The translations under genes were made by a program, and so were the position numbers. DNA of 64,000 nt from Gemmatimonadota bacterium (lineage in GTDB: Bacteria > Gemmatimonadota > Gemmatimonadetes > Gemmatimonadales > GWC2-71-9), in NCBI GenBank assembly GCA_016720805.1, contig JADKJZ010000014.1:516904-580903 (forward strand). Reading direction: 5' to 3'. The notes beneath the pieces are model-generated. The model saw nothing but the letters and a program-made list of their open reading frames with translations, did not search any database and was not told where the DNA came from. Numbering within the stretch: the first letter of the stretch is position 1; each line of letters opens with the position of its first letter. This document shows, piece by piece, positions 7,078 through 55,628 of the stretch.

Positions 7078-7087
7078 TGATTTCAGT

Positions 7088-7102
7088 TGGCAGCAATCTT
7101 GC
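7088..7102 (+). promoter_or_regulatory. Candidate sigma-54 (-24/-12) promoter TGGCAGCAATCTTGC
   Basis: GG-N10-GC spacing is exact. The sequence is close to the TGGCACG-N4-TTGC consensus. It lies about 95 nt upstream of the protease ATG at 7198. Confidence 0.5.
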
Positions 7103-7197
7103 CCGATACTTGGCCAGTAACGCCGCGGCCCTTGGTCGTTCCGAGGATCCGCCTCTGGGGGCTACCCCGCTGGTTTCAGGCTGGAGTCACATTGATC

Positions 7198-10100: not shown

Positions 10101-11475
10101 CGGTGACAACGCCGGGACGACCGCGTGGACCGCGGCGAAGCGGAAGAGCTGGACCACGATCACGACCGGCAGCGGCACCGGCACCGGCACCGCGGCCTGG
10201 ACGCGCAGCACCGCAGGCCTCACGGCGGGCACCTACGTCGACACCATCACCGTGACGGTCGCCGGCCTCGCGCCGCAGCGCGTCATCGACACGTTGCGGA
10301 TCACCGCCGCACCGGTTGCGCTCACCCTGGCGGTGGCGCCTGGTTCGCGGAGCACGACTGCGGCCGCCGGTGCCCCGGCCAGCGGCGACAACGCTGCCGT
10401 GACGTTGAGCGGCGACAACGCCGGCGCCACCCCGTGGACCGCGACCAAGCGGAAGAGCTGGACGACCCTGACCACTGCGGGCGGCACCGGCAGCGGTTCG
10501 GTCGTGTGGACCCGGAACACGGCCGGCCTCAGCGCCGGTACCTATGTCGACACCATCACCGTGGCGGCGTCGGGCCTGTCGCCGCAGCGCGTGATCGACA
10601 CCTTGCGCATCACGTCGGCGCCGGTGCCCGTGACGGTCGCCGTCTCCCCCGGGGGACGTCGGGTCACGGTGACGCGCGGCAACAACGCGGCGAGTGCCAC
10701 CGCGAGCGTCACGCTGGTCGGTACCGACGCCGGCAGCACGGCGTGGCTGGCCACTCGGCGTCGGAGCCAGACGTCGTTCACGACCAGCAGCGGCGTCGGC
10801 AGCGGGACGGTGGCCTGGAACCGGAACACCAGCGCGCTCACCGCCGGCACCTACGTCGACACGATCACCGTGACCGCCGGAGCAGCCACGGCGCGGTTGA
10901 TCGACACGGTGGTGGTGACCACCCCGACCACCGCGACAATCCTCCTGCTGCCGAAGGGCAAGAAGTCGCGCTACCTCACGCAGGCTGGCCGGGCGAACGC
11001 CTTCGCCTCGACGCGTGACTCCGCCCTGGTCGAGGGCGAGGTGATCGAAGGGCAGAGCGACCAGTGGACCGCCGTCATTGGCGGGACAGGCCTCACCGTG
11101 CTCTCCCCGGTCGGTCGGTTGGGGGAATATGTGTACTGGGAGCGGCGGAGCGCGGCGTCCAACGCCGGGTTGTATGTCGACACCGTTCGGGTGCAGTTGG
11201 TTGGGTCTGCCGGTCTCGAGGCGACCTTCGTCGACTCCCTCGAGGTCGTGACGGTGGAAGTGCCCGCCGTCGGGTTGGCCGTGGACGAGCTGGTCCGCGG
11301 TGGGCAGTTGAACAACGACCAGCGCCTGCTCTTCGACAGCGAAGGCAATCGCAACGGTTACTTCGATCTCGGCGACTTCCTCGCCTGGGTCGATCGCGAC
11401 CGGATCCGGCTCTCGCCGTCTCAGGTGGCGAAGCTGCAGTCCATTCCGATCACGCCCGTTCGACCGCGGTCGTAG
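7198..11475 (+). CDS. Secreted subtilisin-like (S8) serine protease with 8-9 tandem 103-aa beta-sandwich-like repeats and a dockerin/EF-hand-like C-terminus
   Basis: Signal peptide MNRPSQILRLASLLIALAATALPGQG, then an I9-like propeptide. Catalytic motifs VMDSGID, HGTHIAG and GTSMAAPHV are present. The repeats run 8458-10923. The tail reads DSEGNRNGYFDLGDFLAWVDR. Confidence 0.85.
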   Translation: MNRPSQILRLASLLIALAATALPGQGGARRVIITLRSSSGEAALRAPGSPPVTSTELSQISARLDRDLPTLVETGRAPFAGMLFAQVSAAEATRLASDPNVAMVEEDRLWSPADAVTALSSGDRWAALRSQPTDGADTTPWGVARVMAPEVWANGNRGAGVKVAVMDSGIDTGHSDLSVAGGYNAVTRVASGYGDDIGACNGHGTHIAGTIAALSNGSGVVGVAPDVQLYAIKVFQDVSGSCLAYTSNQIAGLNWAVSQGIRLVNVSIGGSSSFSYNAAIATAADQGTFLIAAAGNGGGAVLYPAAAPSAIAVAALDDSNLRASWSSFGPEVGFAAPGVNINSTMPGGGYGGKSGTSMAAPHVVGVAALILAAHPGLTLDGLRQKLRDGVLDVDAGGFDNNTGFGLVRAQPSLGGGSPPPPVPLAMSVSPLFRSTTATAGMAATGSSASVSLSGDNAGTTAWNATKRKNWTTLTTASGSGSGTVAWNRSTAGLTAGTYVDTITVSAAGVASQSIIDTLRITAAPVPLTMAVAPLFRSTVATAGTAAAGSSATITLSGDNAGTTAWTAAKRKSWTTLTTASGTGSGTVAWSRSTAGLVAGTYVDTITVSASGVAAQNIIDTLRITAAPVPLALAVSPLSRNATAQVGTAAPGDNATVTLTGDNAGTTPWTTSKRKSWTTLTTGSGTGSGTASWTRSTAGLSAGTYVDTITVTVAGLAPQSVIDTLRITAAPVALALAVSPRSRNTMAQVGTAASGDNAAVTLTGDNAGGTAWTAAKRKSWTTLTTSSGTGTGTAAWTRSTAGLTAGTYVDTITVTVAGLAPQSVIDTLHITAAPVPLALAVSPSSRNASAQVGTAAPGDNAGVTLTGDNAGTTAWTVAKRKSWTTLTTNSGTGNGTAAWTRSTAGLTAGTYVDTITVTVVGLAPQSVIDTLRITAAPVALALAVTPSSRNVATQVGTEAPSDNAAVSLTGDNAGTTAWTAAKRKSWTTITTGSGTGTGTAAWTRSTAGLTAGTYVDTITVTVAGLAPQRVIDTLRITAAPVALTLAVAPGSRSTTAAAGAPASGDNAAVTLSGDNAGATPWTATKRKSWTTLTTAGGTGSGSVVWTRNTAGLSAGTYVDTITVAASGLSPQRVIDTLRITSAPVPVTVAVSPGGRRVTVTRGNNAASATASVTLVGTDAGSTAWLATRRRSQTSFTTSSGVGSGTVAWNRNTSALTAGTYVDTITVTAGAATARLIDTVVVTTPTTATILLLPKGKKSRYLTQAGRANAFASTRDSALVEGEVIEGQSDQWTAVIGGTGLTVLSPVGRLGEYVYWERRSAASNAGLYVDTVRVQLVGSAGLEATFVDSLEVVTVEVPAVGLAVDELVRGGQLNNDQRLLFDSEGNRNGYFDLGDFLAWVDRDRIRLSPSQVAKLQSIPITPVRPRS
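8458..10923 (+). repeat. In-frame tandem repeat with 309-bp period, 8 copies (plus a degenerate 9th downstream)
   Basis: Each copy begins PVPL/PVAL and ends DTLRITAA. Copies start at 8458, 8767, 9076, 9385, 9694, 10003, 10312 and 10621. Antisense ORFs in the track also show the 309-nt periodicity. Confidence 0.9.
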
Positions 11476-11496
11476 CGCCACGAACCGTCATGGCAG

Positions 11497-11532
11497 ATGG
11501 GGCCGCCGATCTTCCAAGATCGGCGGCCCCAT
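11497..11532. terminator. Perfect inverted repeat (bidirectional terminator candidate) between convergent genes
   Basis: The sequence is ATGGGGCCGCCGATCTT-cc-AAGATCGGCGGCCCCAT. It lies between the protease stop (11475) and the stop of the convergent gene (11565). Confidence 0.6.
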
Positions 11533-11564
11533 TCGCATGCTGGTTGCCCGAGGGTGCTGGTCGG

Positions 11565-12611
11565 TCAGCCGCTGACCGGTCCGAGCCGGGCCGCCTCGAT
11601 CGCGTGGTACATCTCCCACGCCGTCGCATGTGCGAGCCGCCAGCCGCGCCGAGTGCAGGCCGCACGCACCTGGCGGAGCGTCGTGTCGAGGTCGCCCCCC
11701 AGCATCGGGCCGGCGTTCTTCTCGATGGCCCCGTGGGTGAACAACTTCACGAAGACGTCGTTCCCGATGCGCGGCGCGGCGTTGAGCCAGCAGTCCGCCC
11801 GATCTGCCCCCGGCCGGGCATAGCCGGCCAGCTCGCCAACTTCCAGCGAGGGAAGCAGGCGCCACCGCGGGTGCGGCCGCATCGTGAGCGGCCCCTGCAC
11901 GCAGAGCAACGCGTCCGCCGGCGGCACGGCGCCGCATGTGACCAATGGGCCGCTGTCGTGCGACTTGGGGCGCTGCGGGTCATCGACGGCCCAGTAGATC
12001 GCATTGACGAGTGACGTCTGACACGGGTCCGGTGCCGAGGGCATGGTGAAGTCGGCGTAGCAGCCCAACTGGCGGAGCAAGGTCAATTCGTTGTTGAGTC
12101 CGCACCAGCGCCCATCGGGGCGCGAATTGTCCAGCGCCCAGTTGCCATGGATGAAGGCAAAGCCGGGACGCCCCTGCCAGTCATGCAACAGGCCGTGGGC
12201 GCCACGCAGGGTGTCGATGAAGCCGGTCATCCGGTCGAGGAACGCCTGCTCGCTTTCCCCGTCGTGATGCAGGTGCACCTCGACGTCGCCGAAGCCGCGG
12301 CGGGTGAGCCCCGCGAGACCCTCCAGCAGATCGGCGCGGTATTCCTCCTCCGGATAGAAGAAGGTCCACTGCGCGGGGCGTCCGCTGTCGTCCGGATGCG
12401 CCTCGGCGATGCGGGGCCACGCGGCCAGCCAGGCATCGACGCGCGTCGTCGCGACGGCGTCGCTCGCCTTCCCCCAATACGGCTCGTAGTGGTCGGCGAA
12501 CATCAGGTGCACCGTGATCGGGCGCGTCGGGTCGAATCGATGTGCGGCGTTCCGCCGGCGAGCCGACCACCACCCTGGCAGCCACCGCTGCGCTTCGCGG
12601 GGCAATTTCAT
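11565..12611 (-). CDS. Hypothetical protein, possibly polysaccharide deacetylase / glycoside-hydrolase-deacetylase barrel-like
   Basis: 348 aa. His/Asp-rich motifs (HLMFADHYEPYW, VHLHHDGE, FIHGNWALDN). It is the last gene of an EPS operon. The family assignment was not verified. Confidence 0.35.
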   Translation of the reverse strand: MKLPREAQRWLPGWWSARRRNAAHRFDPTRPITVHLMFADHYEPYWGKASDAVATTRVDAWLAAWPRIAEAHPDDSGRPAQWTFFYPEEEYRADLLEGLAGLTRRGFGDVEVHLHHDGESEQAFLDRMTGFIDTLRGAHGLLHDWQGRPGFAFIHGNWALDNSRPDGRWCGLNNELTLLRQLGCYADFTMPSAPDPCQTSLVNAIYWAVDDPQRPKSHDSGPLVTCGAVPPADALLCVQGPLTMRPHPRWRLLPSLEVGELAGYARPGADRADCWLNAAPRIGNDVFVKLFTHGAIEKNAGPMLGGDLDTTLRQVRAACTRRGWRLAHATAWEMYHAIEAARLGPVSG

Positions 12612-23642: not shown

Positions 23643-23776
23643 TTAGGTGCTAGTCGTTGGTCGTTAGTTGTTAGGTGGCAATGAGCGAAGGGTGAAATGG
23701 GGCCGAAATCGGCGACCATTTCACCCTTTTTCTCGTAGCCTGTAGTGACCAACAACTAAGGACTAACGACTCACGA
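23643..23776. repeat. Nested hairpin element: heptamer-periodic outer arms (TAGTCGT/TGGTCGT/TAGTTGT) around an intrinsic-terminator-like inner stem
   Basis: The inner stem AAGGGTGAAATGG (23688-23700) pairs with CCATTTCACCCTT (23716-23728) and is followed by a T-tract. The outer left arm 23651-23678 is about 80 percent complementary to 23742-23770. The element abuts both convergent stop codons. Confidence 0.8.
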
Positions 23777-32532: not shown

Positions 32533-32610
32533 CGTGAAAGGTGAAACGTGAAAGGTGAAACGGGGGCCAATGTGGGCCTCCGTTTCACCTCTTACGTTTT
32601 ACGCTTCTCG
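32533..32610. repeat. Hairpin element with (SGTGAAA)x4 left arm, a GC inner stem and a degenerate complementary right arm
   Basis: The left side reads CGTGAAA GGTGAAA CGTGAAA GGTGAAA CGGGGGCC, the loop is aatgt, and the right side reads GGGCCTCCG TTTCACC TCTTACG TTTTACG CTTCTCG. It lies between convergent stops at 32515 and 32613. Confidence 0.8.
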
Positions 32611-33760: not shown

Positions 33761-35152
33761 ATGCTGTTCAACAGTTTCATCTTCCTCTTCGCCTTCCTGC
33801 CAGTCACCTACGTGGTGTTCTGGCTGCTGGGGACGGCCCGCAGTCGCTATGTCTGGCTCACCATCACCGGATATGTCTTCTACGGCTACTGGGACTGGCG
33901 CTTCTGCTTCCTGATGGCCTTCTCGACGCTGGTCAGTTATACGGCCGGACTCGGGATGCTCCGCTTCGATGCCGACCCGCGCAAGCGGAAGCTCTGCCTG
34001 ATTGTCCCGATCACGGTCGACCTGGCGCTGCTCGGCTTCTTCAAATATGCAAACTTCGGGCTCGGCGCGTTCCGGGACGCGATGCACGCCACCGGCCTCG
34101 ACGTCTCGGTCCCCCATCTCGACGTGATCCTCCCGATCGGCATCTCCTTCTACACCTTCCACACCATCAGCTACATCGTCGATGCCTATCGGCGCCAGAT
34201 CACCCCGACGAGGAACCTCTGGGAGTTCGCGTCGTACGTCTCCCTCTTCTCGCAGCTGGTCGCCGGACCGATTGTCCGCTTCCGGCAGATCGAGGCAGAC
34301 CTCGAGGCGCTCGGCACCGCGAGCCGGACCCACTGGCTCCGGACCGGCGTGTCGATCTTCGTGGTCGGGCTGGTCGAGAAGGTGATCCTCGCCGACACCC
34401 TGGCCGCGTTCGTCGACCCGGTGCTGGCGCAGTGGGGCACGGCCTCGACCGGCGCCATCTGGCTCGCGATGCTCGGCTACACCTTTCAGCTCTACTTCGA
34501 CTTCTGCGGCTACAGCAGCATGGCCGTCGGCCTCGGCTACATGTTCGGCCTGCGCATCCCGCGCAACTTCAACTCGCCCTACAAGAGCCTCGACCCGTCG
34601 GAATTCTGGAATCGTTGGCACATCTCGCTCTCGACCTGCATGCGAGACTACCTCTACATCCCCTTCGGCGGCAATCGCGGTGGCACGCTCAAGACCTACC
34701 GCAACCTGCTGCTGACGATGCTCATCGGCGGGCTGTGGCACGGCGCGAACTGGACGTTCATTGTCTGGGGACTCTACCACGGGGTATTGCTCGGCGCCCA
34801 TCGTGCCGCCGGCCGGGGCTGGGATGCCCTGCCGGCGCGCCTTCGCCAGGTCGGCATGGTGTTCGCCGCGCTGATCGGCTGGGTCTTCTTCCGGGCGCTC
34901 GACATGCCGATGGCCATCGGGATGCTGCGGAAGATGTTTTCCCCGGTGGCCGGTGTCTCCGTGCCGCAGGCCTCGTGGGCCGCCGCCGCGGTCGTCATCG
35001 CCGCGATCTGGGGGATGTACGGCCCCAACATCTACGACCTCGATTACCGGCCGCGCTGGTGGAAGAACGCCGTGCTGGCCACCGCGTTCGGCGTGGCGCT
35101 GGCGTTGATTGCGGGGGATCGGAGCAGTCCGTTCCTCTACTTCCAGTTCTAG
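33761..35152 (+). CDS. MBOAT family O-acyltransferase (AlgI/DltB-like)
   Basis: MLFNSFIFLFAFLPV N-terminus. Conserved FWNRWHISLSTCMRDYLYIPFGGNRGG and GLWHGANW motifs. Confidence 0.9.
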   Translation: MLFNSFIFLFAFLPVTYVVFWLLGTARSRYVWLTITGYVFYGYWDWRFCFLMAFSTLVSYTAGLGMLRFDADPRKRKLCLIVPITVDLALLGFFKYANFGLGAFRDAMHATGLDVSVPHLDVILPIGISFYTFHTISYIVDAYRRQITPTRNLWEFASYVSLFSQLVAGPIVRFRQIEADLEALGTASRTHWLRTGVSIFVVGLVEKVILADTLAAFVDPVLAQWGTASTGAIWLAMLGYTFQLYFDFCGYSSMAVGLGYMFGLRIPRNFNSPYKSLDPSEFWNRWHISLSTCMRDYLYIPFGGNRGGTLKTYRNLLLTMLIGGLWHGANWTFIVWGLYHGVLLGAHRAAGRGWDALPARLRQVGMVFAALIGWVFFRALDMPMAIGMLRKMFSPVAGVSVPQASWAAAAVVIAAIWGMYGPNIYDLDYRPRWWKNAVLATAFGVALALIAGDRSSPFLYFQF

Positions 35153-35263
35153 GATGATGGATGATGGATGATGGATGATGGACCAACAGCGAAGGGGAGC
35201 GTCGACTGGGGATCGGCGCTCCCCTTCGCCGTTCGCCCATCCATCATCCATCATCCATCATCC
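35151..35263. repeat. Nested hairpin element: (GGATGAT)x4 ... inner 13-bp GC stem ... (ATCATCC)x3.5
   Basis: Left arm at 35152-35179. The inner stem GCGAAGGGGAGCG (35189-35201) pairs with CGCTCCCCTTCGC (35217-35229). Right arm at 35239-35263. The element lies between convergent stops at 35152 and 35269. Confidence 0.9.
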
Positions 35264-35268
35264 GCCGT

Positions 35269-35907
35269 CTAGTAGCCGCCCGCCTTCACCCCTTCCTTCG
35301 CGCTGCCGAGACCGATGCGAATGCCGCCGTGGAACGAGTAGCTCGCGCCGCGAAGGAGCTTGTCATCGCCCGGAGCGGTATGGATCTGCGCCTGGGCGAA
35401 GGCGGTGAAGCGGTTCCAGCGGCCCTGCACGCCGGCGAGGCCGGTGAGGAAGGCGTAGGCCGACGCGTCCTGCGCGGCACTGAGGAGATCGGCGCGGGTG
35501 AAGGGATCCTGCACGACGGGGTCGACCCGCGGCGAGATCACCTGCATGATGCCGCCGCCGACGCCGAAGTACGGCTCGAGCGGGGCCTTCACCGGGAACG
35601 CCATCAGGACGGCCTGGTAGCGACGGACGTCGTTGAAGATGATCAGGCCGGACTGTTCATCCGAGCCGAGCCCCTCGTCGACGCCGACCATCAGCCCACC
35701 GCGGCGGCCCATGACCAGGATGTGGGCGCCGGCCGACGGCAGGATCTTGGTGTCCTGGGTCCGGGTCTGGATCATCATGGAGCCGGCCTGCAACCCGAGC
35801 TTCCAGGTGTAGGAGTCGTCCCGCTGGGCGGTAGCGCGGCCCGGGGTGACCACGGTCAGGGCCAGGGCGACGAGACAGGCGCCGAACGCCCGCTGGATCT
35901 GCGACAT
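35269..35907 (-). CDS. Outer-membrane beta-barrel protein (small OMP/OmpW-like)
   Basis: ATG at 35907 with GGAGG upstream. Signal peptide MSQIQRAFGACLVALALTVVTPGRATA-Q. Alternating beta-strand pattern with a C-terminal aromatic residue (..KAGGY). Confidence 0.65.
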   Translation of the reverse strand: MSQIQRAFGACLVALALTVVTPGRATAQRDDSYTWKLGLQAGSMMIQTRTQDTKILPSAGAHILVMGRRGGLMVGVDEGLGSDEQSGLIIFNDVRRYQAVLMAFPVKAPLEPYFGVGGGIMQVISPRVDPVVQDPFTRADLLSAAQDASAYAFLTGLAGVQGRWNRFTAFAQAQIHTAPGDDKLLRGASYSFHGGIRIGLGSAKEGVKAGGY

Positions 35908-38210: not shown

Positions 38211-38796
38211 GATCAATCCGGTGGTGAGGAAGCGCCAAATATGGGTGGCCGACCGGAGCAACCCAAGGTCCCCCCGTCGCAGCCGTCGGAAAGATTTTGA
38301 CCGTTCGTGGCCATTTTCGGGGGAGCGGCGGACCGGGCGCGCGGAGGGGAAAAATCCCCCGCTCGCGGCCGGTTGGAGGATGTCGTCGCGTGCGCGGCGC
38401 GCACCGCGCGGCATCGGCGCGTTCGGGAGGTGATGCACGTGGTGGTGCGTGACGTGCACTCGCGCGTGTCGCGGGAAGCCGCATTTCACAAGGCTTTGCG
38501 GTCGACGCGCACACAGTGCGACATCGCGACGTGCCGGTGCGCGCGATGCAACACACGCCGCGCGCGCATCGTGATGCCGCCCCGTGGCGCCGCGTTCTCG
38601 GCGCCAAATCCATGTGGACGATCGGTGGAAGCCGATGCCCCGGTGAGGGTTCCGGGTTGCGGGGGGTATTGCGCCCGGAAGGAAAATTTTGATCTTGTAT
38701 ATGCCGACGCTACTCCGCCGACAGGAGCGGGTCGTCGCCGTGAGTACCGCACGTACGTCGAGTGCTCACGAATTTTTTAATCCTCAGGGAGGCTCC

Positions 38797-39000
38797 ATGG
38801 CTACCAAGAAGGCTGCGAAGAAGGCCGCGAAGCGGCCGGCGAAGAAGGCCGCGAAGAAGGCTGCCAAGCGTCCGGCGAAGAAGGCCGCGAAGAAGGGCGC
38901 GAAGAAGGCTGCCAAGCGTCCGGCGAAGAAGGCTGCCAAGAAGGCCGCCAAGCGTCCGGCGAAGAAGGCCGCCAAGAAGGCCGCGAAGAAGGCTGCGTAA
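38797..39000 (+). CDS. Histone H1-like / AlgP-like Lys-Ala-Pro repeat basic protein
   Basis: GGAGG lies 5 nt upstream of the ATG. The product is 67 aa, MATKKAAKKAAKRPAKKAAKKAAKRPAKK.. A hairpin terminator lies downstream. Confidence 0.7.
   Translation: MATKKAAKKAAKRPAKKAAKKAAKRPAKKAAKKGAKKAAKRPAKKAAKKAAKRPAKKAAKKAAKKAA
38806..38997 (+). repeat. In-frame 36-bp (12-aa, KKAAKKAAKRPA) tandem repeat, about 5 copies
   Basis: Read directly from the coding sequence of the H1-like gene. Confidence 0.8.
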
Positions 39001-39041
39001 GCAGTCGCTCTCGCGGCCTTCGCCGTGAGAGGCAGCTAAGT

Positions 39042-39076
39042 AAAAAGGGCCGGCACGTTGCCGGCCCTATGCTTTT
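39042..39076. terminator. Rho-independent terminator (A-tract, GGGCCGGCA-cgt-TGCCGGCCC, T-tract)
   Basis: The 9-bp perfect GC stem (39047-39067) is flanked by AAAAA on the 5' side and TATGCTTTT on the 3' side. It lies between convergent genes. Confidence 0.75.
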
Positions 39077-39091
39077 CCCCCCAACGACATC

Positions 39092-39958
39092 TCAGGCTCG
39101 GGCGTTGTGTCGCCCGCTCACCGTCTGTTCCGCCGCCGGCTTGCAGAAGAGCGCGCCGCGCGACGCCATCCCGCGCGTCCGACGGCCGGTCGGCGGCAGG
39201 GTTTCCCGCAGCCAACTGGTATAGTGCCCGGCGAACCCTTCCGGCCCGGCCCCCTGCCCATCCGGCACCAGCGCGTGCAATCCGCCGGGAGCGGTCAGCC
39301 CCTGGAGCTCGGTCAGCAGGACCTGCCGCTCCCCCGGCGAGAGGGAGGCGAGGGTGCCGGCGTCGAGTACCACCAGCGCGAAGCCCCCCGGGATGCAGGG
39401 GAGCCACTGGCCGAATTGGACGCAGATCGCATCGAAGGTCGAGGAGAGCGCTTCATCGGCGACCCGACCCTCGGCCCGCTCCACGACGGTGAAGTCCCGG
39501 TCGAGAAAGGTGACGTCGGCGTCGTGGGCCGCAAGCAGGTAGGCGCACTGCTCGGCGCCGACACCGACCACGAGCGCCTGGTCGCCCGGTTCGATCCGCG
39601 GGGCCAGTCCAGCCACCAGATGCGTGTCGTCGAGGTTCCAGTGGATCGGTTCGCGCTGCGCCGCGCGACGCTTCGGGTAGGACTTCCGCCACGCCTCGAA
39701 GCCGCGGATCCCGAGCATCTGGATGATCAGCGCGTCGACCGCTTCCTGCGCAAGGACTTCGGTGAGCAGGAACTGGTCGGCGTCCGATCGGCGCACCTCG
39801 CAGACCGCCTTGTCCGCGAGGCGCATCAGCTCCTCGCGGGAGATCCGGTTCTTGAACTGCTCGACCCGGTCCATGATGTAGAGATCGTATTGCTGGCGCA
39901 GCGAGCGGAGAGGACGCCGCCGGGGGGCGGTCGCGAGAAGCTGCTGCTGGGAAAGCAT
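39092..39958 (-). CDS. Hypothetical protein with a possible class I methyltransferase-like C-terminal half
   Basis: 288 aa. The Rossmann-like stretch ALVVGVGAEQCAYLLAAHDADVTFLDRD weakly resembles SAM motif I. No firm family assignment. Confidence 0.35.
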   Translation of the reverse strand: MLSQQQLLATAPRRRPLRSLRQQYDLYIMDRVEQFKNRISREELMRLADKAVCEVRRSDADQFLLTEVLAQEAVDALIIQMLGIRGFEAWRKSYPKRRAAQREPIHWNLDDTHLVAGLAPRIEPGDQALVVGVGAEQCAYLLAAHDADVTFLDRDFTVVERAEGRVADEALSSTFDAICVQFGQWLPCIPGGFALVVLDAGTLASLSPGERQVLLTELQGLTAPGGLHALVPDGQGAGPEGFAGHYTSWLRETLPPTGRRTRGMASRGALFCKPAAEQTVSGRHNARA

Positions 39959-41194: not shown

Positions 41195-41818
41195 ATGCGC
41201 GAGAATCTAGCCGCCACCCTCCGTCTCCTGCTCGTGACCGACGACGCCCTCCTCGGCGCGCGCGACCCGATCGCCGTGGCGCGGGCGGCCGTCGCGGGAG
41301 GCGTGACCGCCATCCAGCTCCGGCTCAAGCACGCCTCCGATCGTGATCTGCTCGCGCTGGCCCGTCACCTGGTGGCGTTGCTCCCCGTCCCGATCTTCGT
41401 CAACGACCGACTCGACATCGCCCTCGCCGCCGGCGCGGCGGGCGCCCATCTTGGCGCGGACGACCTTCCCCCAGCCCGAGCTCGGCGCATTGTTCCGGCT
41501 GGCTTCCTCCTCGGAGCGTCGGTGGGCAGTCCCGCCGAGATCGAGCGCGGTCTCGCCGCCGACTATTGGGGAATCGGGCCCCTGCACGGCACCAGCACGA
41601 AGGGCGACGCGGGGGACGCGCTTGGACTTGATGGCGCCGCGACGCTGCTGGCGCAGGCAGGCACGCGGCCATGCGTGGTTATCGGTGGCGTGCTGCCGGA
41701 CGATGTCGCGCCGGCGCTCGCGGCAGGCTTTGCGGGCGTCGCGGTCGTGCGCGGAATTCTGGGGGGGGAGGATGTCGAGGAGAGGGCGAGGAAGTACCGG
41801 ATGATGGATGATGGATGA
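41195..41818 (+). CDS. thiE: Thiamine-phosphate synthase
   Basis: 207 aa. Motifs LLLVTD.., VTAIQLRLK, FVNDRLDIALAAGA.GAHLG and VVIGGV. The last 5 codons (MMDDG) and the stop lie inside a GGATGAT array. Confidence 0.8.
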   Translation: MRENLAATLRLLLVTDDALLGARDPIAVARAAVAGGVTAIQLRLKHASDRDLLALARHLVALLPVPIFVNDRLDIALAAGAAGAHLGADDLPPARARRIVPAGFLLGASVGSPAEIERGLAADYWGIGPLHGTSTKGDAGDALGLDGAATLLAQAGTRPCVVIGGVLPDDVAPALAAGFAGVAVVRGILGGEDVEERARKYRMMDDG

Positions 41819-41865
41819 TGGATAATTGCAGAATGCTGTCATCCATCATCGATCATCGATCATCC
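41799..41865. repeat. Hairpin element (GGATGAT)x3-GGATAAT / loop / CATCC-ATCATCG-ATCATCG-ATCATCC
   Basis: Read directly. The left arm contains the thiE stop (41816-41818). The right arm contains the mltG stop (41860-41862). Confidence 0.9.
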
Positions 41866-43358: not shown

Positions 43359-44606
43359 CTACTGCGCCATCGACGCGAAGAACTCCTTGTTCGTCTTCGT
43401 CCGCTTCATCCGCTCGAGGAGGAACTCCATCGCCTCGACCACCGGCATGTCCGCCAGGAAGTTGCGGAGCAGGTAGACGCGGTTGAGCTCGTCCTTGTCG
43501 AGCAGGAGCTCCTCCTTCCGGGTACCCGACTTGTTGATGTCGATGGCGGGGTAGATCCGGCGATCGGCGAGGCGGCGGTCGAGGACGAGTTCAGCGTTGC
43601 CGGTGCCCTTGAACTCCTCGAAGATCACCTCGTCCATCCGCGACCCGGTGTCGATCAGCGCGGTGGCGATGATCGTGAGCGAGCCGCCGCCCTCGATGTT
43701 TCGGGCGGCGCCGAAGAAGCGCTTCGGCTTCTGCAGCGCGTTCGCGTCGACACCACCAGAGAGGATCTTGCCGGAGTGCGGCACGACCACGTTGTGCGCG
43801 CGCGCCAGGCGGGTGATCGAGTCGAGGAGGATGATCACGTCGCGGCCATGCTCGACCAGACGCTTCGCCTTCTCGATGACCATGTCCGCGACCTGCACGT
43901 GGCGGTCCGCCGGCTCGTCGAACGTCGAGGCAATCACCTCGGCCTGGACGTTCTCCTGCATGTCCGTCACTTCCTCGGGGCGCTCGTCGATCAGCAGCAC
44001 GATGAGGTAGCTCTCGGGGTGGTTCTCGGTGATCGCGTTGGCGAGCTTCTGCAGCAGGATCGTCTTGCCGGCCTTCGGCGGCGCCACGATGAGCCCGCGC
44101 TGGCCCTTGCCGATCGGCGACATCAGGTCGACGACGCGCATCGAGAGATCGTTCTTGCTCCCCTCGAGACGGATCCGCTCATCCGGATAGCGCGGCTTCA
44201 GGTTGTCGAAGGCGATCCGGGTCTTGGTCTTGTCCGGCTCCTCGAAGTTGACGCTCTCGACCTTGAGCAGCGCGAGGTACCGTTCCCCCTCCTTCGGTGG
44301 CCGCACCTGACCCTGCACCGTGTCGCCGGTGCGGAGGTCGAACCGCTTGATCTGGCTCGGCGAGACGTAAATGTCGTCAGGGCCGTAGAGGTAGTTCCAA
44401 TCCTGCGACCGGAGGAAGCCGTAGCCTTCCGGCAGGATTTCGAGCACCCCTTCGCCGCGGATGACCGTGTCCTTGTCGAGCAGCGACTGCTCGATGCGGA
44501 AGATCAGGTCCTGCTTGCGGAGGCCTGAATAGTTGGTGATGTTGAGTTCGGCGGCGAGCACATGGAGCTCGGCGACGGATTTCTGCTTCAGTTCAGCAAT
44601 ATCCAC
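43359..44606 (-). CDS. rho: Transcription termination factor Rho
   Basis: GTG at 44606 with GGAG upstream. The N-terminus [23 protein letters not shown].. matches the Rho N-terminal domain. Motifs [15 protein letters not shown] and RFFGAARN are present. Confidence 0.95.
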
Positions 44607-44723
44607 GGATATCTCCGGGTGGCATCGCCAACCCCGCCGGCCAACGCGGCACGACAGGATGGAGTGGGCTTTGGGCGTTCGGTCTGGTGTCTGGGCGTAT
44701 GGGGCTCGCGCGAAGGCGCGAAG

Positions 44724-45935
44724 ATGACCATCGGAAGGGACGCGGGGGATCCTGCAATTGCCCAATCATATGGGGCGTTTGGCGCCCCGTCAACACCGGC
44801 GATGACCGACCCGCGGGCGTTCTTCTCCGTCTGGCGATCGCAACCGCTGGCCGGGACCCGGGAGGTGCTGGACGGCGTGGTTGCCCCGGAACACCGGGGA
44901 CCCTCGCCCGCGCTCACGGCCCTGCTGGCCTCCTGGCCGGGCGCCTGGTATTGGGCGGACGACGCCAGGACCCGGCTGGTACTCATTCAGGGGACGGTCC
45001 CGGCCCGCCCCGAACGGTGGCTCTGGCACGGCGGGCTGTTGCTGCTGACCATCCTCTGCACGCTCGGGGCGGGGGCCGTCTTGCAGAGCCGCTGGGTACC
45101 CACCGTCCACCCAGGCTTCTGGGGTGCGGTCCGCTCCGTGGTCGAATTTGCGGAATTCGCGCTCCAGGGAGGGTGGCGGACCTTGCTGCCGGGTTGGGAG
45201 TTCGCCGCCCCGCTCCTCTCGATCCTCCTCGTCCACGAGCTGGGCCACTATTGGACGGCACGCCGCTACGCCATCGATGTCTCGCCACCCTACTTCCTGC
45301 CGGTGCCGCCGAATCTTTCACCGATCGGCGGACTCGGGGCGTACATCCGGCTCCGCTCCCCGATCTATGATCGGCGGCAGCTGCTCGATGTCGGCGCCGC
45401 GGGCCCCCTCGCGGGATTCGTGGTGGCCATCGGCGTGATGATCTGGGGCTACTCGCTGTCGCATCGGATGGAGTTCCCGCTGGCTGGATCGCCGTCCTTC
45501 GTGCTCTTTGCAGGGAAGCCGGCCTTTCTGGGCGATTCGTTCCTGACCCATCAGCTGCGGGAGTGGCTGCTGCCGGGCACGGGGGCGGTGCTCCTCTCGC
45601 CGCAGGCGTTTGCGGGGTGGGTCGGCCTCTTCATCACCGGACTCAACTTGCTGCCCCTGTCACAGCTGGACGGCGGGCACGTCCTCTACGGTCTGTTGGG
45701 GCGGCGACAGAAGACGATCGGCCTGCTCTGCGTCGGTGCGCTGCTCATTCTCGCGCAGCAGGCACCGATGTGGTATCTCTGGGTGGTCCTCACCTTCGCG
45801 ATCGGTGGCGGACGCTGGACCCACCCGGAAGTGGTACTGCCTGACCGTCCGGTGCTCGCGGCCGGACGCTGGACCGGCTTCTGCTGTATCGTTGTCTTCC
45901 TGCTGACCTTCGTGCCAGTCCCTTTCCTTCGCTGA
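44724..45935 (+). CDS. Site-2 protease family (M50) membrane metalloprotease
   Basis: HELGH zinc motif ([10 protein letters not shown]). Polytopic. [14 protein letters not shown] (NxxPxxxLDG) motif. Start uncertain (ATG at 44724 or 44802). Confidence 0.8.
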
Positions 45936-47511: not shown

Positions 47512-49470
47512 ATGAGCAGGGATCAGAGTTGGTTGGAACGGACGTTGTACGGGACCGGGACGCCGTCGCCCCTGGCGCAGCTACTCGCGAAGCACGAGGG
47601 GTTGGCGTGGGCGAGCGTTGCGGGGTTGCTCCTCTTCACCAGCTGGATCGTCGAGCGGACCGCGATCTTCGCACCGTGGGTCGCACTCGCAGGCTACGGC
47701 CTCGTCGGCGTGATTGGCGGCCGCCAGCCGGTGCTGCACTTGGTGCGCGCGCTGCGGCGTGGCGCATTCCATCTCGACATCGACTTCCTGATGGTCGTCG
47801 CCGCGATTGGTGCAGCGAGTGTCGGCGCGTGGGCCGAGGGCGCCTTCCTCCTCTTTCTCTTTGCCCTGGCGAACGCACTCGAGGAGTACGCCCTCGACCG
47901 CGCGCGGTCGGCGATCCGCAACCTCGCCGACTTGGCGCCGGCGCAGGCGCGCCTGCTGCGCGATGGCGTCGAGGTGGAGATCCCGGTCGAGCAGGTGCGC
48001 ATCGGTGATGTGCTGGTGGTTCGTCCCGCCGAGCGGTTGCCGGCCGATGGCACGGTACGGACGGGACGATCGGCCATCAATCAGGCCCCGATCACCGGGG
48101 AATCGGTGCCGGTGGAGAAGGAGCCGGGCGATGAGGTCTTCGCCGGCACGGTGAACGGCGATGGCGCCCTCGAGATCACGGCGACGCGCGCGGTCGGTGA
48201 CCGTACACTCGACCGCGTCATCCGGCTGGTCGAGGAGGCGCAGGCGGCGAAGGCACCGGTCCAGCGCATCACCGAGCGGTTCGAGCGGATCTTCGTCCCG
48301 GCCGTCGTGATTGGCGACATCCTGCTGATCGTGGTGCCGGGGCTGATGGGGTGGATGCCGTGGGGCGAGAGCCTCTATCGCGGCATGACGGTACTGGTCG
48401 CGGCCTCGCCCTGCGCGATTGCGCTCGGCGCACCGGCCGCGATGCTGGCCGGCATCGCGCAAGCGGCAAAGCACGGCGTGCTGCTGAAGGGCGGCGCCTC
48501 CCTCGAGGCGCTCGCCACGGTGCGCGCCGTCGCCTTCGACAAGACCGGGACGCTGACGGCGGGGCGCCCCGAGGTGACCGACGTGACCCCGATGCCCGGC
48601 GTCACCATCCCTGAGCTGCTTGGGATGGCAGCGGCGGTCGAAGCGCGGTCACAGCATCCGCTGGCCCAGGCGGTGGTGCGTCGTGCGGCAACGGACGGGG
48701 TCACGTTGCCCGCCGCCGGTGAGCTGCAGAGCATGACGGCGCGGGGCGTGCGGGCCGACGTGGCCGGCCTGCCGGTGCTGATTGGGAGTGCGCGGCTCTG
48801 GACCGATGACGGGATCGCCTTCCCGGCCGAGATCACGGCGGCGCTGGAGGAAATGAGTGCCCGCGGCCGCAGCATGATGATCGTTCGCCATGGCGAGCGT
48901 TGGCTCGGCGTGCTGGGCCTGCTCGATCCGCCGCGGCCCTCGGTGCATGCCACGCTGGAGCGATTGCGGGCGTTGCACCTCAAACCGCTGGTGATGCTCA
49001 CCGGCGATCACCGCGGCGTCGGCGAGGCGATCGGTCGCGAGGTCGGTGTCGATGAGGTGCGCGCTGATCTGCTCCCCGAGGACAAGGTCACCGCCATCCA
49101 CGAACTGATGGCGGCGCACGGGACCATGGTGATGGTGGGCGACGGCGTGAATGACGCGCCGGCGCTCGCCGCGTCGACGGTGGGGATCGCGATGGGAGGC
49201 GCCGGCACCGCCGCCGCGCTCGAGACCGCCGACGCCGCCCTCATGGGCGACGACCTGGCCCGCCTCCCCTGGGCGATCGGCCTGGCCCGGGCCACGCGGC
49301 GGATCGTTTTCCAGAACCTGGCGATCGCCGGCGGCGTCATGCTGACGCTGCTGATCCTGGCGGCGAGCGGGATCCTCACGATCGGCCCCGCAGTGGTCGG
49401 GCACGAGGGGAGCACGCTGGTGGTGATTGCGAATGCGTTGCGGCTGCTGGCGTACAAGGATGATGGATGA
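47512..49470 (+). CDS. Heavy-metal P1B-type ATPase without an N-terminal metal-binding domain (SPC / HEGST motifs; P1B-4-like, Co/Zn-type)
   Basis: GGAG lies upstream of the ATG. Motifs TGES, SPC in the TM region (VAASPCAIALG), DKTGTLT, GDGVNDAPAL and HEGSTLVV. The last 3 codons and the stop lie in a GGATGAT array. Confidence 0.85.
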   Translation: MSRDQSWLERTLYGTGTPSPLAQLLAKHEGLAWASVAGLLLFTSWIVERTAIFAPWVALAGYGLVGVIGGRQPVLHLVRALRRGAFHLDIDFLMVVAAIGAASVGAWAEGAFLLFLFALANALEEYALDRARSAIRNLADLAPAQARLLRDGVEVEIPVEQVRIGDVLVVRPAERLPADGTVRTGRSAINQAPITGESVPVEKEPGDEVFAGTVNGDGALEITATRAVGDRTLDRVIRLVEEAQAAKAPVQRITERFERIFVPAVVIGDILLIVVPGLMGWMPWGESLYRGMTVLVAASPCAIALGAPAAMLAGIAQAAKHGVLLKGGASLEALATVRAVAFDKTGTLTAGRPEVTDVTPMPGVTIPELLGMAAAVEARSQHPLAQAVVRRAATDGVTLPAAGELQSMTARGVRADVAGLPVLIGSARLWTDDGIAFPAEITAALEEMSARGRSMMIVRHGERWLGVLGLLDPPRPSVHATLERLRALHLKPLVMLTGDHRGVGEAIGREVGVDEVRADLLPEDKVTAIHELMAAHGTMVMVGDGVNDAPALAASTVGIAMGGAGTAAALETADAALMGDDLARLPWAIGLARATRRIVFQNLAIAGGVMLTLLILAASGILTIGPAVVGHEGSTLVVIANALRLLAYKDDG

Positions 49471-49542
49471 TGGATGATGGACGATGGATGATGGATGATG
49501 GATGACGGCTCCGATCGATCCATCATCCATCATCCATCATCC
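49458..49542. repeat. Hairpin element (GGATGAT-type)x7 / 12-nt loop / TCC(ATCATCC)x3
   Basis: Read directly. It lies at a co-directional junction between the ATPase and ADH genes. Confidence 0.9.
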
Positions 49543-49604
49543 TACTTCCCCTCGCCCTATTCTCCGGCCATCCTTCCCGCTCCCCGTTCCGCCCGGAGTC
49601 CCAC

Positions 49605-54053: not shown

Positions 54054-54109
54054 GCGGGGAGCGGGGAGCGAGAAGCGAGGGGTGAGGGGTGAGGGGTGAG
54101 GGGTGAGGG
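54054..54109. repeat. Direct heptamer array GCGGGGA x2, GCGAGAA, GCGAGGG, GTGAGGG x4
   Basis: Read directly. It lies in the divergent region between the AP-superfamily gene and the Nramp gene. No complementary arm was found nearby. Confidence 0.85.
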
Positions 54110-54157
54110 GCACGTTGGCCGGGTATACTCCAGCACTCCCCTGAAACAGGATGTTGT

Positions 54158-55471
54158 ATGGCGACTGAGCCCCCGATCGTGGAACGTCCGAGTGACGCGG
54201 CGCGATGGGCCCGTGGTGGCCCCCGTGCCGTGCGTCGGTTCTGGCACTCCCTCGGGCCGGGGCTGATTACCGGGGCCGCCGATGACGATCCATCCGGCAT
54301 CGCCACCTACTCGATTGCCGGCGCCCGCTTCGGCACCTCGCTGCTCTGGATGTCGGTGCTCACCTGGCCGTTGATGGCAGCGGTGCAGACGATGTGCGCC
54401 CGAATCGGCATGGTGACCGGCCATGGCCTGGCGGCGGCGCTGCAACAGAAGTTTCCCCGCCCCGTGCTGCTGGTGATGTGTGTCGGGTTGATGATTGCCA
54501 ACACCATCAACATCGGCGCCGATCTCGCCGGGATGGCCGACGCCGCCGAGCTGATCACCGGGATCAACTCCCATTTGCTCGTCGTGGTCTTCGGTGGCCT
54601 GATCGCGTGGGCGACGGTCCAGCTGCGCTACGCCGCCTTTGCGCGCATCCTCAAGTGGCTCGCCCTGGTGCTTGGCGTCTACATCATCGCGGCGATCGAT
54701 CTCAAGCCGGTCTGGAGCTCGGTGCTGCACGACACCTTCCTCCCCTCCGGCCTCGATTCGCGCGAGGCGTGGTCCACCGTGGTCGCGATCCTCGGCACGA
54801 CGATCTCGCCCTACCTCTTCTTCTGGCAGGCGTCGCAGGAAGTCGAGGAAGAGAAGGCCGCCGGCAAGGTGACGGAGGAAGCCCGGCGCGGCGCGACGGC
54901 GGCGCAGCTCCGCGCCCGGAAGCTCGACGTCGGCTTCGGCACCTTCTTCTCCAACCTCGCGATGTTCTTCATCATCCTGACGACGGCGCTGACCCTGCAC
55001 AAGGCGGGCATTACCGAACTCGCGACCGGCGCCGAGGTGGCGAAGGCGCTCGAGCCGCTCGCCGGGCGCTTCTCGTCGTGGCTGTACGCCATCGGCGTGA
55101 TCGGCACCGGCGCGCTGGCGATTCCCACGCTGGCCGGCTCCGCGGCGTACGCCTTCGCCGAGACGCTTGGCTGGCAGCAAGGGATGGACGAGGACTTCCG
55201 TCGCGCCGAGCCGTTCTACGCCGTGATCGTCGTGGCGCTGCTGATCGGCGTCCTGCTCGATTTCGCCAACGTCTCGCCCGTCAAGGCGCTGTACTGGACC
55301 GCCGTCCTCAACGGCGTGCTGGCGCCCTTCCTGCTCACGGCGATTCTGATGGTCGCCGGCAACAAGGCCATCATGCAGGGGCAGCCGTCGTCGCGGCTCG
55401 GGATGGTGACGGTCGGCATCACGACGGTGGTGATGTTTGGGGCGGCGATTGCGATGTTTGTGGCGAGATGA
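54158..55471 (+). CDS. mntH: Nramp family divalent metal (Mn2+/Fe2+) transporter
   Basis: GPGLITGAADDDPSGIATYS motif. 437 aa and polytopic. Confidence 0.85.
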   Translation: MATEPPIVERPSDAARWARGGPRAVRRFWHSLGPGLITGAADDDPSGIATYSIAGARFGTSLLWMSVLTWPLMAAVQTMCARIGMVTGHGLAAALQQKFPRPVLLVMCVGLMIANTINIGADLAGMADAAELITGINSHLLVVVFGGLIAWATVQLRYAAFARILKWLALVLGVYIIAAIDLKPVWSSVLHDTFLPSGLDSREAWSTVVAILGTTISPYLFFWQASQEVEEEKAAGKVTEEARRGATAAQLRARKLDVGFGTFFSNLAMFFIILTTALTLHKAGITELATGAEVAKALEPLAGRFSSWLYAIGVIGTGALAIPTLAGSAAYAFAETLGWQQGMDEDFRRAEPFYAVIVVALLIGVLLDFANVSPVKALYWTAVLNGVLAPFLLTAILMVAGNKAIMQGQPSSRLGMVTVGITTVVMFGAAIAMFVAR

Positions 55472-55628
55472 TGGATGATGGATGATGGATGATGGATGAT
55501 GGATGGCGGGAAAGTGAGCCGGCATCGGCCATGGCGAGCGGTCCAGCATCCCCGATCCATCATCTATCATCCATCATCCATCATCCATCATCCATCATCC
55601 ATCATCCATCATCCATCATCCATCATCC
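55466..55628. repeat. Largest hairpin element: (GGATGAT-type)x5.5 / about 50-nt spacer / (ATCATCC)x10
   Basis: The left arm (55466-55507) includes the Nramp stop at 55469-55471. The right arm (55559-55628) is 10 near-perfect units. Confidence 0.9.

Follow-up and report, generated by a model that had tools for sequence, protein, structure and literature searches.

Inverted pairs of heptanucleotide arrays form long hairpins at gene 3' ends in a Gemmatimonadota bacterium

The junction downstream of the MBOAT gene

A stretch of 64,000 nucleotides from a Gemmatimonadota bacterium (assembly GCA_016720805.1, contig JADKJZ010000014.1, positions 516,904 to 580,903; hereafter the window) was analysed for tandem arrays of 7-nt units, which lie mainly at the 3' ends of genes and are mostly arranged as inverted pairs. 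The prototype of these elements is located between two convergent genes. The first, on the plus strand, encodes a protein of the MBOAT family (Pfam PF03062) and ends with TAG at 35150-35152. The 5' arm, (GGATGAT)x4.4 on the plus strand at 35152-35182, shares the last base of this stop codon. It is followed by a perfect 13-bp GC stem, in which 35189-35201 (GCGAAGGGGAGCG) pairs with 35217-35229 (CGCTCCCCTTCGC) across a 15-nt loop, and by the 3' arm, (ATCATCC)x3.7 on the plus strand at 35238-35263. Beside the central stem, single GCGAAC-like units are left as apparent relics at 35184-35192 (AACAGCGAA) and 35230-35237 (CGTTCGCC). The stop codon of the convergent minus-strand gene (CTA, 35269-35271) is reached after 5 nt (GCCGT), and the hairpin occupies the whole spacer between the two stop codons. 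The succession of GGATGAT arm, 13-bp GC palindrome and ATCATCC arm after the MBOAT stop had been described in the original prediction and was confirmed, with the copy numbers given here; the distance to the convergent stop had been counted as 6 nt. The label of the convergent gene as an outer membrane protein (OMP) was not confirmed, as its 212-aa secreted product gave no family match.

RNA folding of the prototype spacer resulted in one continuous hairpin on either strand, with a dG of -89.6 kcal/mol (z -10.7) for the plus strand and -95.4 kcal/mol (z -11.9) for the minus strand. The predicted folding of the outer arms as a stem stacked on a stem was thus recovered as a single, very stable structure.

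The last 22 nt of the MBOAT gene (35129-35150, CCGTTCCTCTACTTCCAGTTCT, encoding ..PFLYFQF) are identical in at least 120 unrelated metagenome contigs. This identity is codon-level conservation at the C-terminus of this acyltransferase family, and most MBOAT-type genes sharing it precede an operon partner, not a hairpin. Matches in JGI metagenomes were used as a negative control. No heptamer array was present downstream of the unrelated MBOAT 3' ends (0 of 117), so the arrays are not tied to the MBOAT gene. Further prototype alleles of this species were not recovered from the JGI metagenomes by means of the 22-nt end.

Arrays in the window

Tandem Repeats Finder reported period-7 arrays at the prototype and at all seven other places that had been named as related loci, with 3.4-10.6 copies and 73-100% matches. 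Ten perfect heptamer arrays of at least 3 copies were counted in the window, against 0.01 expected from Markov-1 simulations, and every other period from 4 to 12 gave 0-2 perfect arrays. All eight loci are non-coding, though non-coding sequence makes up 5.2% of the window (P ~5e-11).

The gene map was based on GC3, checked against the depositors' gene calls, and comprised 12 convergent, 26 tandem and 12 divergent junctions. Four of the loci (826, 23651, 32534 and 35152) fill convergent spacers from stop to stop, and three (41799, 49458 and 55467) come after the stop of the upstream gene in tandem pairs. None of the six paired elements of the window lies in a divergent spacer, while divergent spacers account for 56% of the spacer length (P 0.008). 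This depletion was also found with the approximately 17 paired elements of usable context across all loci, including 18 Gemmatimonadales loci (P <=0.01). The proposed preference for gene 3' ends was accordingly upheld. Across genomes, arms sit -19 to +19 nt from stop codons, abutting or overlapping them. In a crude cross-phylum test, which is suggestive at most because gene calling was rough, GGATGAT arrays lay at 24 sense-strand ends of open reading frames (ORFs) and at 10 antisense ones.

The eight loci differ in unit and completeness. At 826-885, (CGATGAT)x8.6 on the plus strand fills the 60-nt spacer between the convergent stops TAA (822-824) and TCA (885-887); the predicted array is present here as a single one, and a separate inverted arm was not found. 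Between the next convergent genes, (TAGTCGT)x3.4 (23651-23674) and (GACTAAC)x4.3 (23747-23776) enclose an inner hairpin with TTTTT (GGGTGAAATGG/CCATTTCACCC, 23690-23731), and the right arm overlaps a gene stop at 23771-23773. The third convergent spacer contains (SGTGAAA)x3.9 (32534-32560), a GC hairpin whose tail is rich in T (32553-32590) and an inverted arm of degenerate sequence reaching approximately 32610. Two loci consist of closely spaced GGATGAT pairs: (GGATGAT)x3.6 and (ATCATCS)x3.7, 15 nt apart, at 41799-41864 between tandem minus-strand genes, where the array overlaps the YceG stop (41860-41862), and (GGATGAT)x6.9 and (ATCATCC)x3.6, 12 nt apart, at 49458-49542 after a P-type ATPase gene (stop 49468-49470). 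The longest arm belongs to the pair (GGATGAT)x5.6 (55467-55505) and (ATCATCC)x10.6 (55555-55628) behind the Nramp gene, the stop of which (TGA, 55469-55471) is array-borne. Five inverted pairs were detected automatically, and the degenerate one at 32534-32610 is the sixth. RNA folding gave z values of -5 to -10 for the remaining paired loci and -3.5 for the single CGATGAT array at 826. The central sequences of the eight loci are mutually unrelated, and the palindromes at the centres of pairs include a T-tailed terminator-like hairpin.

The locus at 54054-54110 had been listed with the 3'-end hairpins and does not belong there. It is a G-rich, one-armed array on the plus strand (GCGGGGA x2.4, then GAGGGGT x4.9) without an inverted arm or a hairpin (z +0.36), located in a divergent promoter region between the 5' ends of two genes, 16 nt upstream of the start of a phosphodiesterase gene (54038) and 48 nt upstream of that of the Nramp gene (54158). 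Read as (GGGGTGA)x5, it fits the G-quadruplex motif. A change in the spacing of promoters may result from it.

Convergent junctions without arrays (11473-11567 and 38998-39094) bear plain GC hairpins. The hairpin appears to be the constant feature, and the arrays an addition to it. Within the second of these junctions, a textbook bidirectional terminator was found at 39046-39068, with a 10-bp stem and A and T tracts on both sides and without heptamer arrays. Upstream of it (region 38689-39068) lies a small ORF with tandem repeats of 24/36 nt, which encodes a KKAA-rich, histone-H1-like tail (38806-38997). An S8 peptidase gene (7087-11475, 1462 aa) contains a 309-nt unit repeated 6.8 times with 78% matches at 8520-10628; the copy in the sister genome described below has 1425 aa, and the number of 309-nt repeats may vary between strains. 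The genes of the window comprise an exosortase/exopolysaccharide (EPS) locus plus housekeeping genes (Rho at 43359-44765, RuvX, YceG).

Array alleles among strains

The window's genes were found in many wastewater and activated-sludge contigs. By exact protein matches, a sister metagenome-assembled genome (MAG) from activated sludge (GCA_016709975.1, contig JADJLS010000003.1), which groups with Gemmatimonadales, represents a different strain of the window's species at 98-99% identity. The strains compared were 98-99.8% identical, and approximately 75 kb of the genome of this species was covered.

At the prototype junction, three alleles were found between identical stop-codon positions. Allele A is that of the window. 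Allele A', present in seven contigs, has the arms and the 13-bp stem of A and differs in the spacers and the loop. Allele B (contigs L001, L129, L137 and L004) consists of (GCGAACR)x5-6 on the left, the stem GGCGGTGTCACGG and (YGTTCGC)x4-5 on the right, and its MBOAT stop is TGA in place of TAG. The units of allele B contain no stop triplet on either strand. Its RNA is as stable as that of A (-89.2 kcal/mol, z -15.7). The 837-nt flank of the junction has only eight variable sites, and one haplotype is common to the window (A), contig L129 (B) and contig L136 (A'). Turnover or shuffling of the alleles therefore outpaces the accumulation of single-nucleotide polymorphisms nearby. The single GCGAAC-like units kept beside the stem of allele A suggest an older GCGAAC array that was largely displaced by GGATGAT arrays. 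A stop-less GCGAACG-type unit (CGCCGTT x3.9) is also arrayed in a divergent spacer of the sister MAG (L149:18174-18200), and the unit of allele B is therefore a genome-wide unit too.

Whole units were gained or lost at other junctions as well, as had been anticipated for comparisons between relatives. At 55467, the left arm of contig L125 has one unit more and the right arm four units fewer. The array at 54054 has five or four units depending on the strain and is a GGTCGTA array in contig L128, the junction at 826 is 13 nt shorter in the sister MAG, and the junction at 32534-32610 is identical there. At 49458, the ATPase gene is replaced in some strains by a divergent 264-aa gene upstream of ADH, and the array is absent. 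When 49458-49604 was compared with contigs L140-L142 (780-945), homology restarted approximately 10 nt past the right end of the array, and the synteny break coincides with the array.

At greater distance, the arrays do not stay in place. In a related Gemmatimonadales MAG, the adjacent Na/H exchanger and P-type ATPase genes are syntenic (66% and 75% amino-acid identity), and no arrays were found at the orthologous junctions of that MAG; its arrays sit at other junctions. The comparison of orthologous junctions that the original prediction had called for thus gave no conservation. A gene beside an array in contig L086 was considered as an ATPase orthologue and rejected by BLASTP, the true orthologues being elsewhere.

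Orientation, stop codons and termination

Three genes of the window end on array-borne stops, in agreement with what had been claimed for several flanking genes. The G of the MBOAT stop TAG is an array base. The P-type ATPase ends with ..K-D-D-G-stop (AAG GAT GAT GGA TGA), so that the last four codons and the TGA are array-encoded, and the AGA TGA end of the Nramp gene is array-borne.

The orientation of the arms was fixed. In all 18 Gemmatimonadales-type pairs (5 from the window and 13 from related genomes), the G-rich arm is the 5' one on both strands, as it is in all 20 GGATGAT-type pairs, including 8 of 8 in other phyla. The rule holds for 12 of 15 unit families. The inward strand carries a stop in each arm of 17 of the 18 Gemmatimonadales-type pairs, and the outward strand carries none in 16 of the 18. 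Counted by unit family, inward stops occur in six of seven Gemmatimonadales-type families, against 0.35 expected from arm composition (P ~0.01). A different distribution was obtained for the non-GGATGAT pairs of other phyla, with inward-only stops in 2, outward-only stops in 2, both in 1 and none in 5. When approximately 16 unit families from all sampled phyla were pooled, about half had inward stops, which is near the composition expectation of 0.35. Stop codons contain no C, and a C-poor arm therefore carries stops almost automatically. The stop content is largely explained as a by-product of the C-poor gene-proximal arm; the data support a rule by which the arm towards the incoming gene is the G-rich one, and stop content is for the most part a consequence of it.

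The earlier view of the arrays was that of a selected fail-safe module, in which the proximal array stops translation in all frames and the paired arrays act as a bidirectional terminator or insulator hairpin. Its arithmetic is correct, as 7 = 1 mod 3 and three stop-bearing units place a stop in every frame; gene-adjacent arms almost never have fewer than 3 units, hairpin stability is very high, and the array-borne stops and the counts of inward stops in Gemmatimonadales point in the same direction. A stop in each unit, as had been stated, is true of the window's units but not of the GCGAACR arrays, which are allelic to the prototype in sister strains. With allele B lacking stops on both strands beside the same flanks, the mixed counts in other phyla and the pooled frequency near expectation, stop supply is not a defining property. 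The GGGAATC arrays of Xanthomonas obey the same strand rule, the G-rich strand being the coding strand after the stop, with a unit that has no stop (PMC4692102). Arrays were also not kept at orthologous junctions.

The termination part of this view was compared with the structure of an intrinsic terminator, a GC stem-loop followed by a U tract. Downstream of the GGATGAT hairpins the sequence reads GCCGUC, UACUUC or GCUGUC, and a U tract is missing. In a scan for stems plus T tracts, only 32553-32590 was flagged among the array loci, and the inner hairpin at 23690-23731 also has TTTTT. Overall, consensus scans gave no enrichment of terminator-like sites (6 vs 7.9 expected and 5 vs 5.7 expected), and Rfam covariance models gave no match at the gathering threshold in the whole window. 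Most arrays are thus not canonical terminators, contrary to the bidirectional terminators that had been proposed. A role of the 3'-end hairpin in termination, RNA stability or insulation is plausible, and the terminator role is best called putative. Taken together, selection of the arrays as fail-safe modules is considered unlikely.

Arm anatomy and taxonomic spread

Copy numbers within pairs are unequal (e.g. 5.6 vs 10.6), and some arms are homogenised to a variant unit of their own, with GGATGAT opposite ATCATCG or TCCATGA, which leaves one mismatch per unit. Such arm-specific variants were seen, for example, in contig L024 and at 41839-41864. Complementarity is therefore not tightly kept once a pair has formed. 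Both features are predicted by slippage within each arm, and on their account a continuing hairpin-templated symmetry was rejected; hairpin-templated copying, if it occurs at all, would be confined to the formation of a pair. Different unit families can be nested, as in contig L093 (1670-1880), where outer AGGTCGT arrays enclose inner GTGAAAC arrays and a GC core.

Period 7 dominates beyond the window. It accounts for 46 of approximately 86 tandem arrays in 18 Gemmatimonadales loci (131 kb) and for 302 of approximately 545 in 102 loci of other phyla (720 kb), 169 of the latter with units other than GGATGAT. Genomes bearing (GGATGAT)x3 are rich in heptamer arrays generally, with dozens of units (contigs L005-L124). 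A search for (GGATGAT)x3 in a 596-Gb collection with one genome per species gave at least 120 stretches, against approximately 0.3 expected for a random 21-mer. Most of the matches listed belong to Bacteroidota, Gemmatimonadota, Verrucomicrobiota, Planctomycetota and Acidobacteriota. Paired GGATGAT...ATCATCC hairpins around terminator-like stems were seen in Flavobacteriales, Phycisphaeraceae, Acidobacteria, Acidimicrobiia and one alphaproteobacterial MAG. Units recurring between genomes are GGATGAT, CGATGAT, GTGAAAC, AGGTCGT, TGAGTCS and GGGGTGA. In related genomes, arrays of pyrimidine-rich or stop-less units also occur right before start codons (TCGCTTC, CTCCCTT and AAGAGAG, at L095:4862-4900, L087:168-219 and L083:40-61); arrays at 5' ends may use other units than those at 3' ends.

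The recurrence of one unit in one orientation in Gemmatimonadota, Bacteroidota, Planctomycetota, Acidobacteriota, Verrucomicrobiota, Acidimicrobiia and some Proteobacteria would fit arrays of binding sites, in which (GGAUGAU)n RNA or the DNA would be the target of a conserved protein or of the machinery of transcription or translation. The excess of (GGATGAT)x3 stretches and the recurrence of GTGAAAC, AGGTCGT, TGAGTCS and GGGGTGA point the same way. One candidate reader of (GGAUGAU)n would presumably be a CsrA-type binder of GGA motifs in RNA. Many unrelated units behave alike in the same genomes, however, copy number is not conserved, and no candidate binding protein was identified; the count of GGATGAT in the collection stands without a baseline for arrays of other heptamers. 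Such a recognition function is held to be rather improbable.

In a further reading, GGATGAT-type arrays, and heptamer arrays generally, would be more than passive products of slippage; they would be written or maintained by a conserved activity on gene-end hairpins or cruciforms, possibly by staggered 7-nt nick-and-fill or palindrome-templated copying, or they would be read as a 3'-end signal across phyla. A dedicated writer or reader would explain why the G-rich arm always comes first in orientation, why one unit recurs between phyla as far apart as Bacteroidota and Gemmatimonadota and how both arms can be exchanged together beside identical flanks. It is kept in consideration as an outside chance because two-arm replacement and the fixed orientation with recurring GGATGAT exceed simple slippage.

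Mobile elements and assembly

The original prediction had offered a REP- or MITE-like dispersed element as an alternative, i.e. a repetitive extragenic palindrome (REP), a bacterial interspersed mosaic element (BIME) or a MITE (miniature inverted-repeat transposable element) inserting downstream of genes. The copies are indeed dispersed, extragenic and palindromic and lie at 3' ends, the whole prototype hairpin is swapped with sharp boundaries, and one array (49458) coincides with a strain-level synteny break. A REP is defined by a palindrome consensus common to its copies; the centres of the eight loci are unrelated, and among all DNA compared, the allele-specific centres and the units of arm, centre and arm were found at their own junction only. 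Of the features of a MITE, namely terminal inverted repeats, target-site duplications and a conserved interior, the window loci do not show the set, and no consistent flanking direct repeats or target-site duplications were seen on reading the flanks. A Pfam scan of the approximately 50 window genes gave no transposase or RAYT. Furthermore, arm copy numbers differ and the arms drift independently. On the basis of the approximately 75 kb covered, identity with a REP or MITE was therefore rejected for lack of a shared core, a target-site duplication and a transposase nearby, and mobility of this kind is regarded as very improbable.

In some related genomes, a true REP-like palindrome is found between heptamer arms. 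The dispersed long palindrome GTCATCCTGAGCGAAGCG...CGCTCAGGATGAC occurs between the arms in several Gemmatimonadales MAGs (L058:2205-2335 and 6600-6760, three sites in L055, L086:4473-4518, and L043). It looks like a genuine REP/MITE-like family, separate from the arrays.

An assembly artefact of repetitive or palindromic reads, as might be suspected from the many short-read contigs that stop inside arrays and from contig L002, which folds back at the hairpin, can be dismissed, because the window has these arrays, with coherent alleles, in common with the NCBI MAG and with independent assemblies from ENA and Logan. Contig L002 (ERZ965210 k127_115946) passes through the hairpin at 1793-2008 and returns along the reverse complement of the MBOAT gene, a fold-back chimera to which the palindrome gave rise during assembly.

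Interpretation

The arrays are most probably heptanucleotide microsatellites of the long simple sequence repeat (LSSR) or short tandemly repeated repetitive (STRR) type, driven by slippage and gathering around 3'-end hairpins, from which the paired hairpins are built. A probability of about 0.6 is assigned to this explanation. It starts from what was observed directly, i.e. the repeat structure, its non-random occurrence, the folding potential, the position, the polymorphism among strains and the taxonomic spread; a slippage mechanism, a symmetrisation of the arms and any function at the RNA level would be inferred from these.

The following course of events is proposed. Units of 7 nt, the commonest tandem repeats here and in many genomes, would be tolerated only outside coding sequence and would gather around pre-existing GC-rich palindromes downstream of genes. 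Two convergent arrays would form there, with the G-rich, C-poor arm nearest to each incoming gene, and a palindrome-mediated copying step may make both arms alike. The arrays would then expand, contract and be replaced very fast, most likely by replication slippage, as suggested by length changes in steps of one unit and by the homogenisation of single arms, until they fill the spacer up to the stops and some stops or last codons become array sequence. The outcome would be an extra-long stem on the 3'-end hairpin common to convergent or tandem genes. Any function beyond this longer stem is unproven.

Several observations weigh against this explanation. Slippage alone accounts neither for the recurrence of GGATGAT at 5 of the 8 window loci and in many phyla, nor for the fixed orientation of the GGATGAT pairs (20/20) and of the Gemmatimonadales-type pairs (18/18), nor for the simultaneous swap of both arms for an unrelated heptamer beside an identical flank. 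In addition, with six of seven stop-bearing families in Gemmatimonadales against 0.35 expected (P ~0.01), some selection for stops is not excluded.

The wastewater strain series documents how such arrays change, with whole units gained and lost and entire arrays swapped beside otherwise identical flanks. Population data of this species would make it approachable why the period is 7 and why GGATGAT recurs, and the arrays would serve as high-resolution strain markers. In practical terms, arrays break short-read assemblies and can yield fold-back chimeras, and annotated proteins can owe their last residues or their stop codon to them.

Comparison with known systems

The architecture had been thought to be undescribed. 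Inverted heptamer-array pairs in Xanthomonas and 7-bp STRR hairpins in cyanobacteria precede it (PMC4692102, PMC2670836), and the elements are not a new class. In the literature searched, GGATGAT arrays and heptamer arrays in Gemmatimonadota were not mentioned.

Xanthomonas genomes contain 70-75 convergent inverted heptamer-array pairs each, with the unit GGGAATC and the capacity to fold into stem-loops (Rehm et al. 2015, PMC4692102). These pairs are enriched 0-50 bp after stops on the coding strand, some overlapping the stop, and are depleted between divergent ORFs; their length and sequence vary between relatives, which usually keep the single or paired type nonetheless (PMC4692102). The modal copy number of the Xanthomonas and Nostoc arrays (GGGAATC and GGGGA(C/T)T) is near 4, with a strong non-coding bias (PMC4692102). 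The arrays described here agree with those of Xanthomonas in the 7-nt unit, the convergent inverted pairs, the proximity to or overlap with stop codons, the depletion in divergent spacers and the variation between strains. They differ in the host phylum, in the coexistence of several unrelated unit families, some of them nested, and in the stop triplet carried by most units. Unlike the G-tract units of Xanthomonas, GGATGAT, CGATGAT, TAGTCGT, GTGAAAS and GCGAACR lack GGG and cannot form G-quadruplexes, for which only the array at 54054 would be suited.

The STRR sequences of cyanobacteria are intergenic tandem units of 7 bp that form hairpins, e.g. between hupS and hupL (PMC2670836). Roles in transcript stability, translational coupling or termination were proposed for them, and their function is unsettled (PMC2670836). 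The arrays of the window resemble STRR as 7-bp tandem intergenic units able to form hairpins; phylum and units differ, and paired arms around a separate GC palindrome and an allele swap are absent from that report. According to the summaries of the LSSR survey, heptanucleotides are the most abundant class, are typical of large, high-GC genomes of non-pathogens, and were proposed to arise when the polymerase slips on a segment of 7 nt (Mrazek et al. 2007, summarised in PMC4679880 and PMC4692102). As summarised there, the survey is statistical, whereas hairpin pairing, stop overlap and replacement between strains are described here.

TAACTGA direct repeats of Beggiatoaceae, Cyanobacteria and Bacteroidetes are located mostly just before start codons and run in one orientation, with inverted pairs in 1 of 170 cases (MacGregor 2015, PMC4679880). 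They share with the present arrays the intergenic heptamer array, the stop-containing unit and the patchy distribution across phyla, whereas those of the window and its relatives occupy 3' ends, for the most part as pairs.

REP/BIME sequences and intrinsic terminators are extragenic palindromes at 3' ends, in which inverted short motifs are recruited into stems. Unlike REP/BIME, the elements of the window have no consensus palindrome, no RAYT among the approximately 50 genes and mostly no U tract. They are thus neither REP nor MITE. Paired heptamer-array hairpins, known from other bacteria, are extended by them to the Gemmatimonadota and occur widely in Bacteroidota, Planctomycetota, Acidobacteriota and other phyla; what is added to the known type are the coexistence and nesting of several unit families, stop codons provided by arrays, the exchange of both arms beside identical flanks, and a fixed orientation with GGATGAT recurring across phyla.

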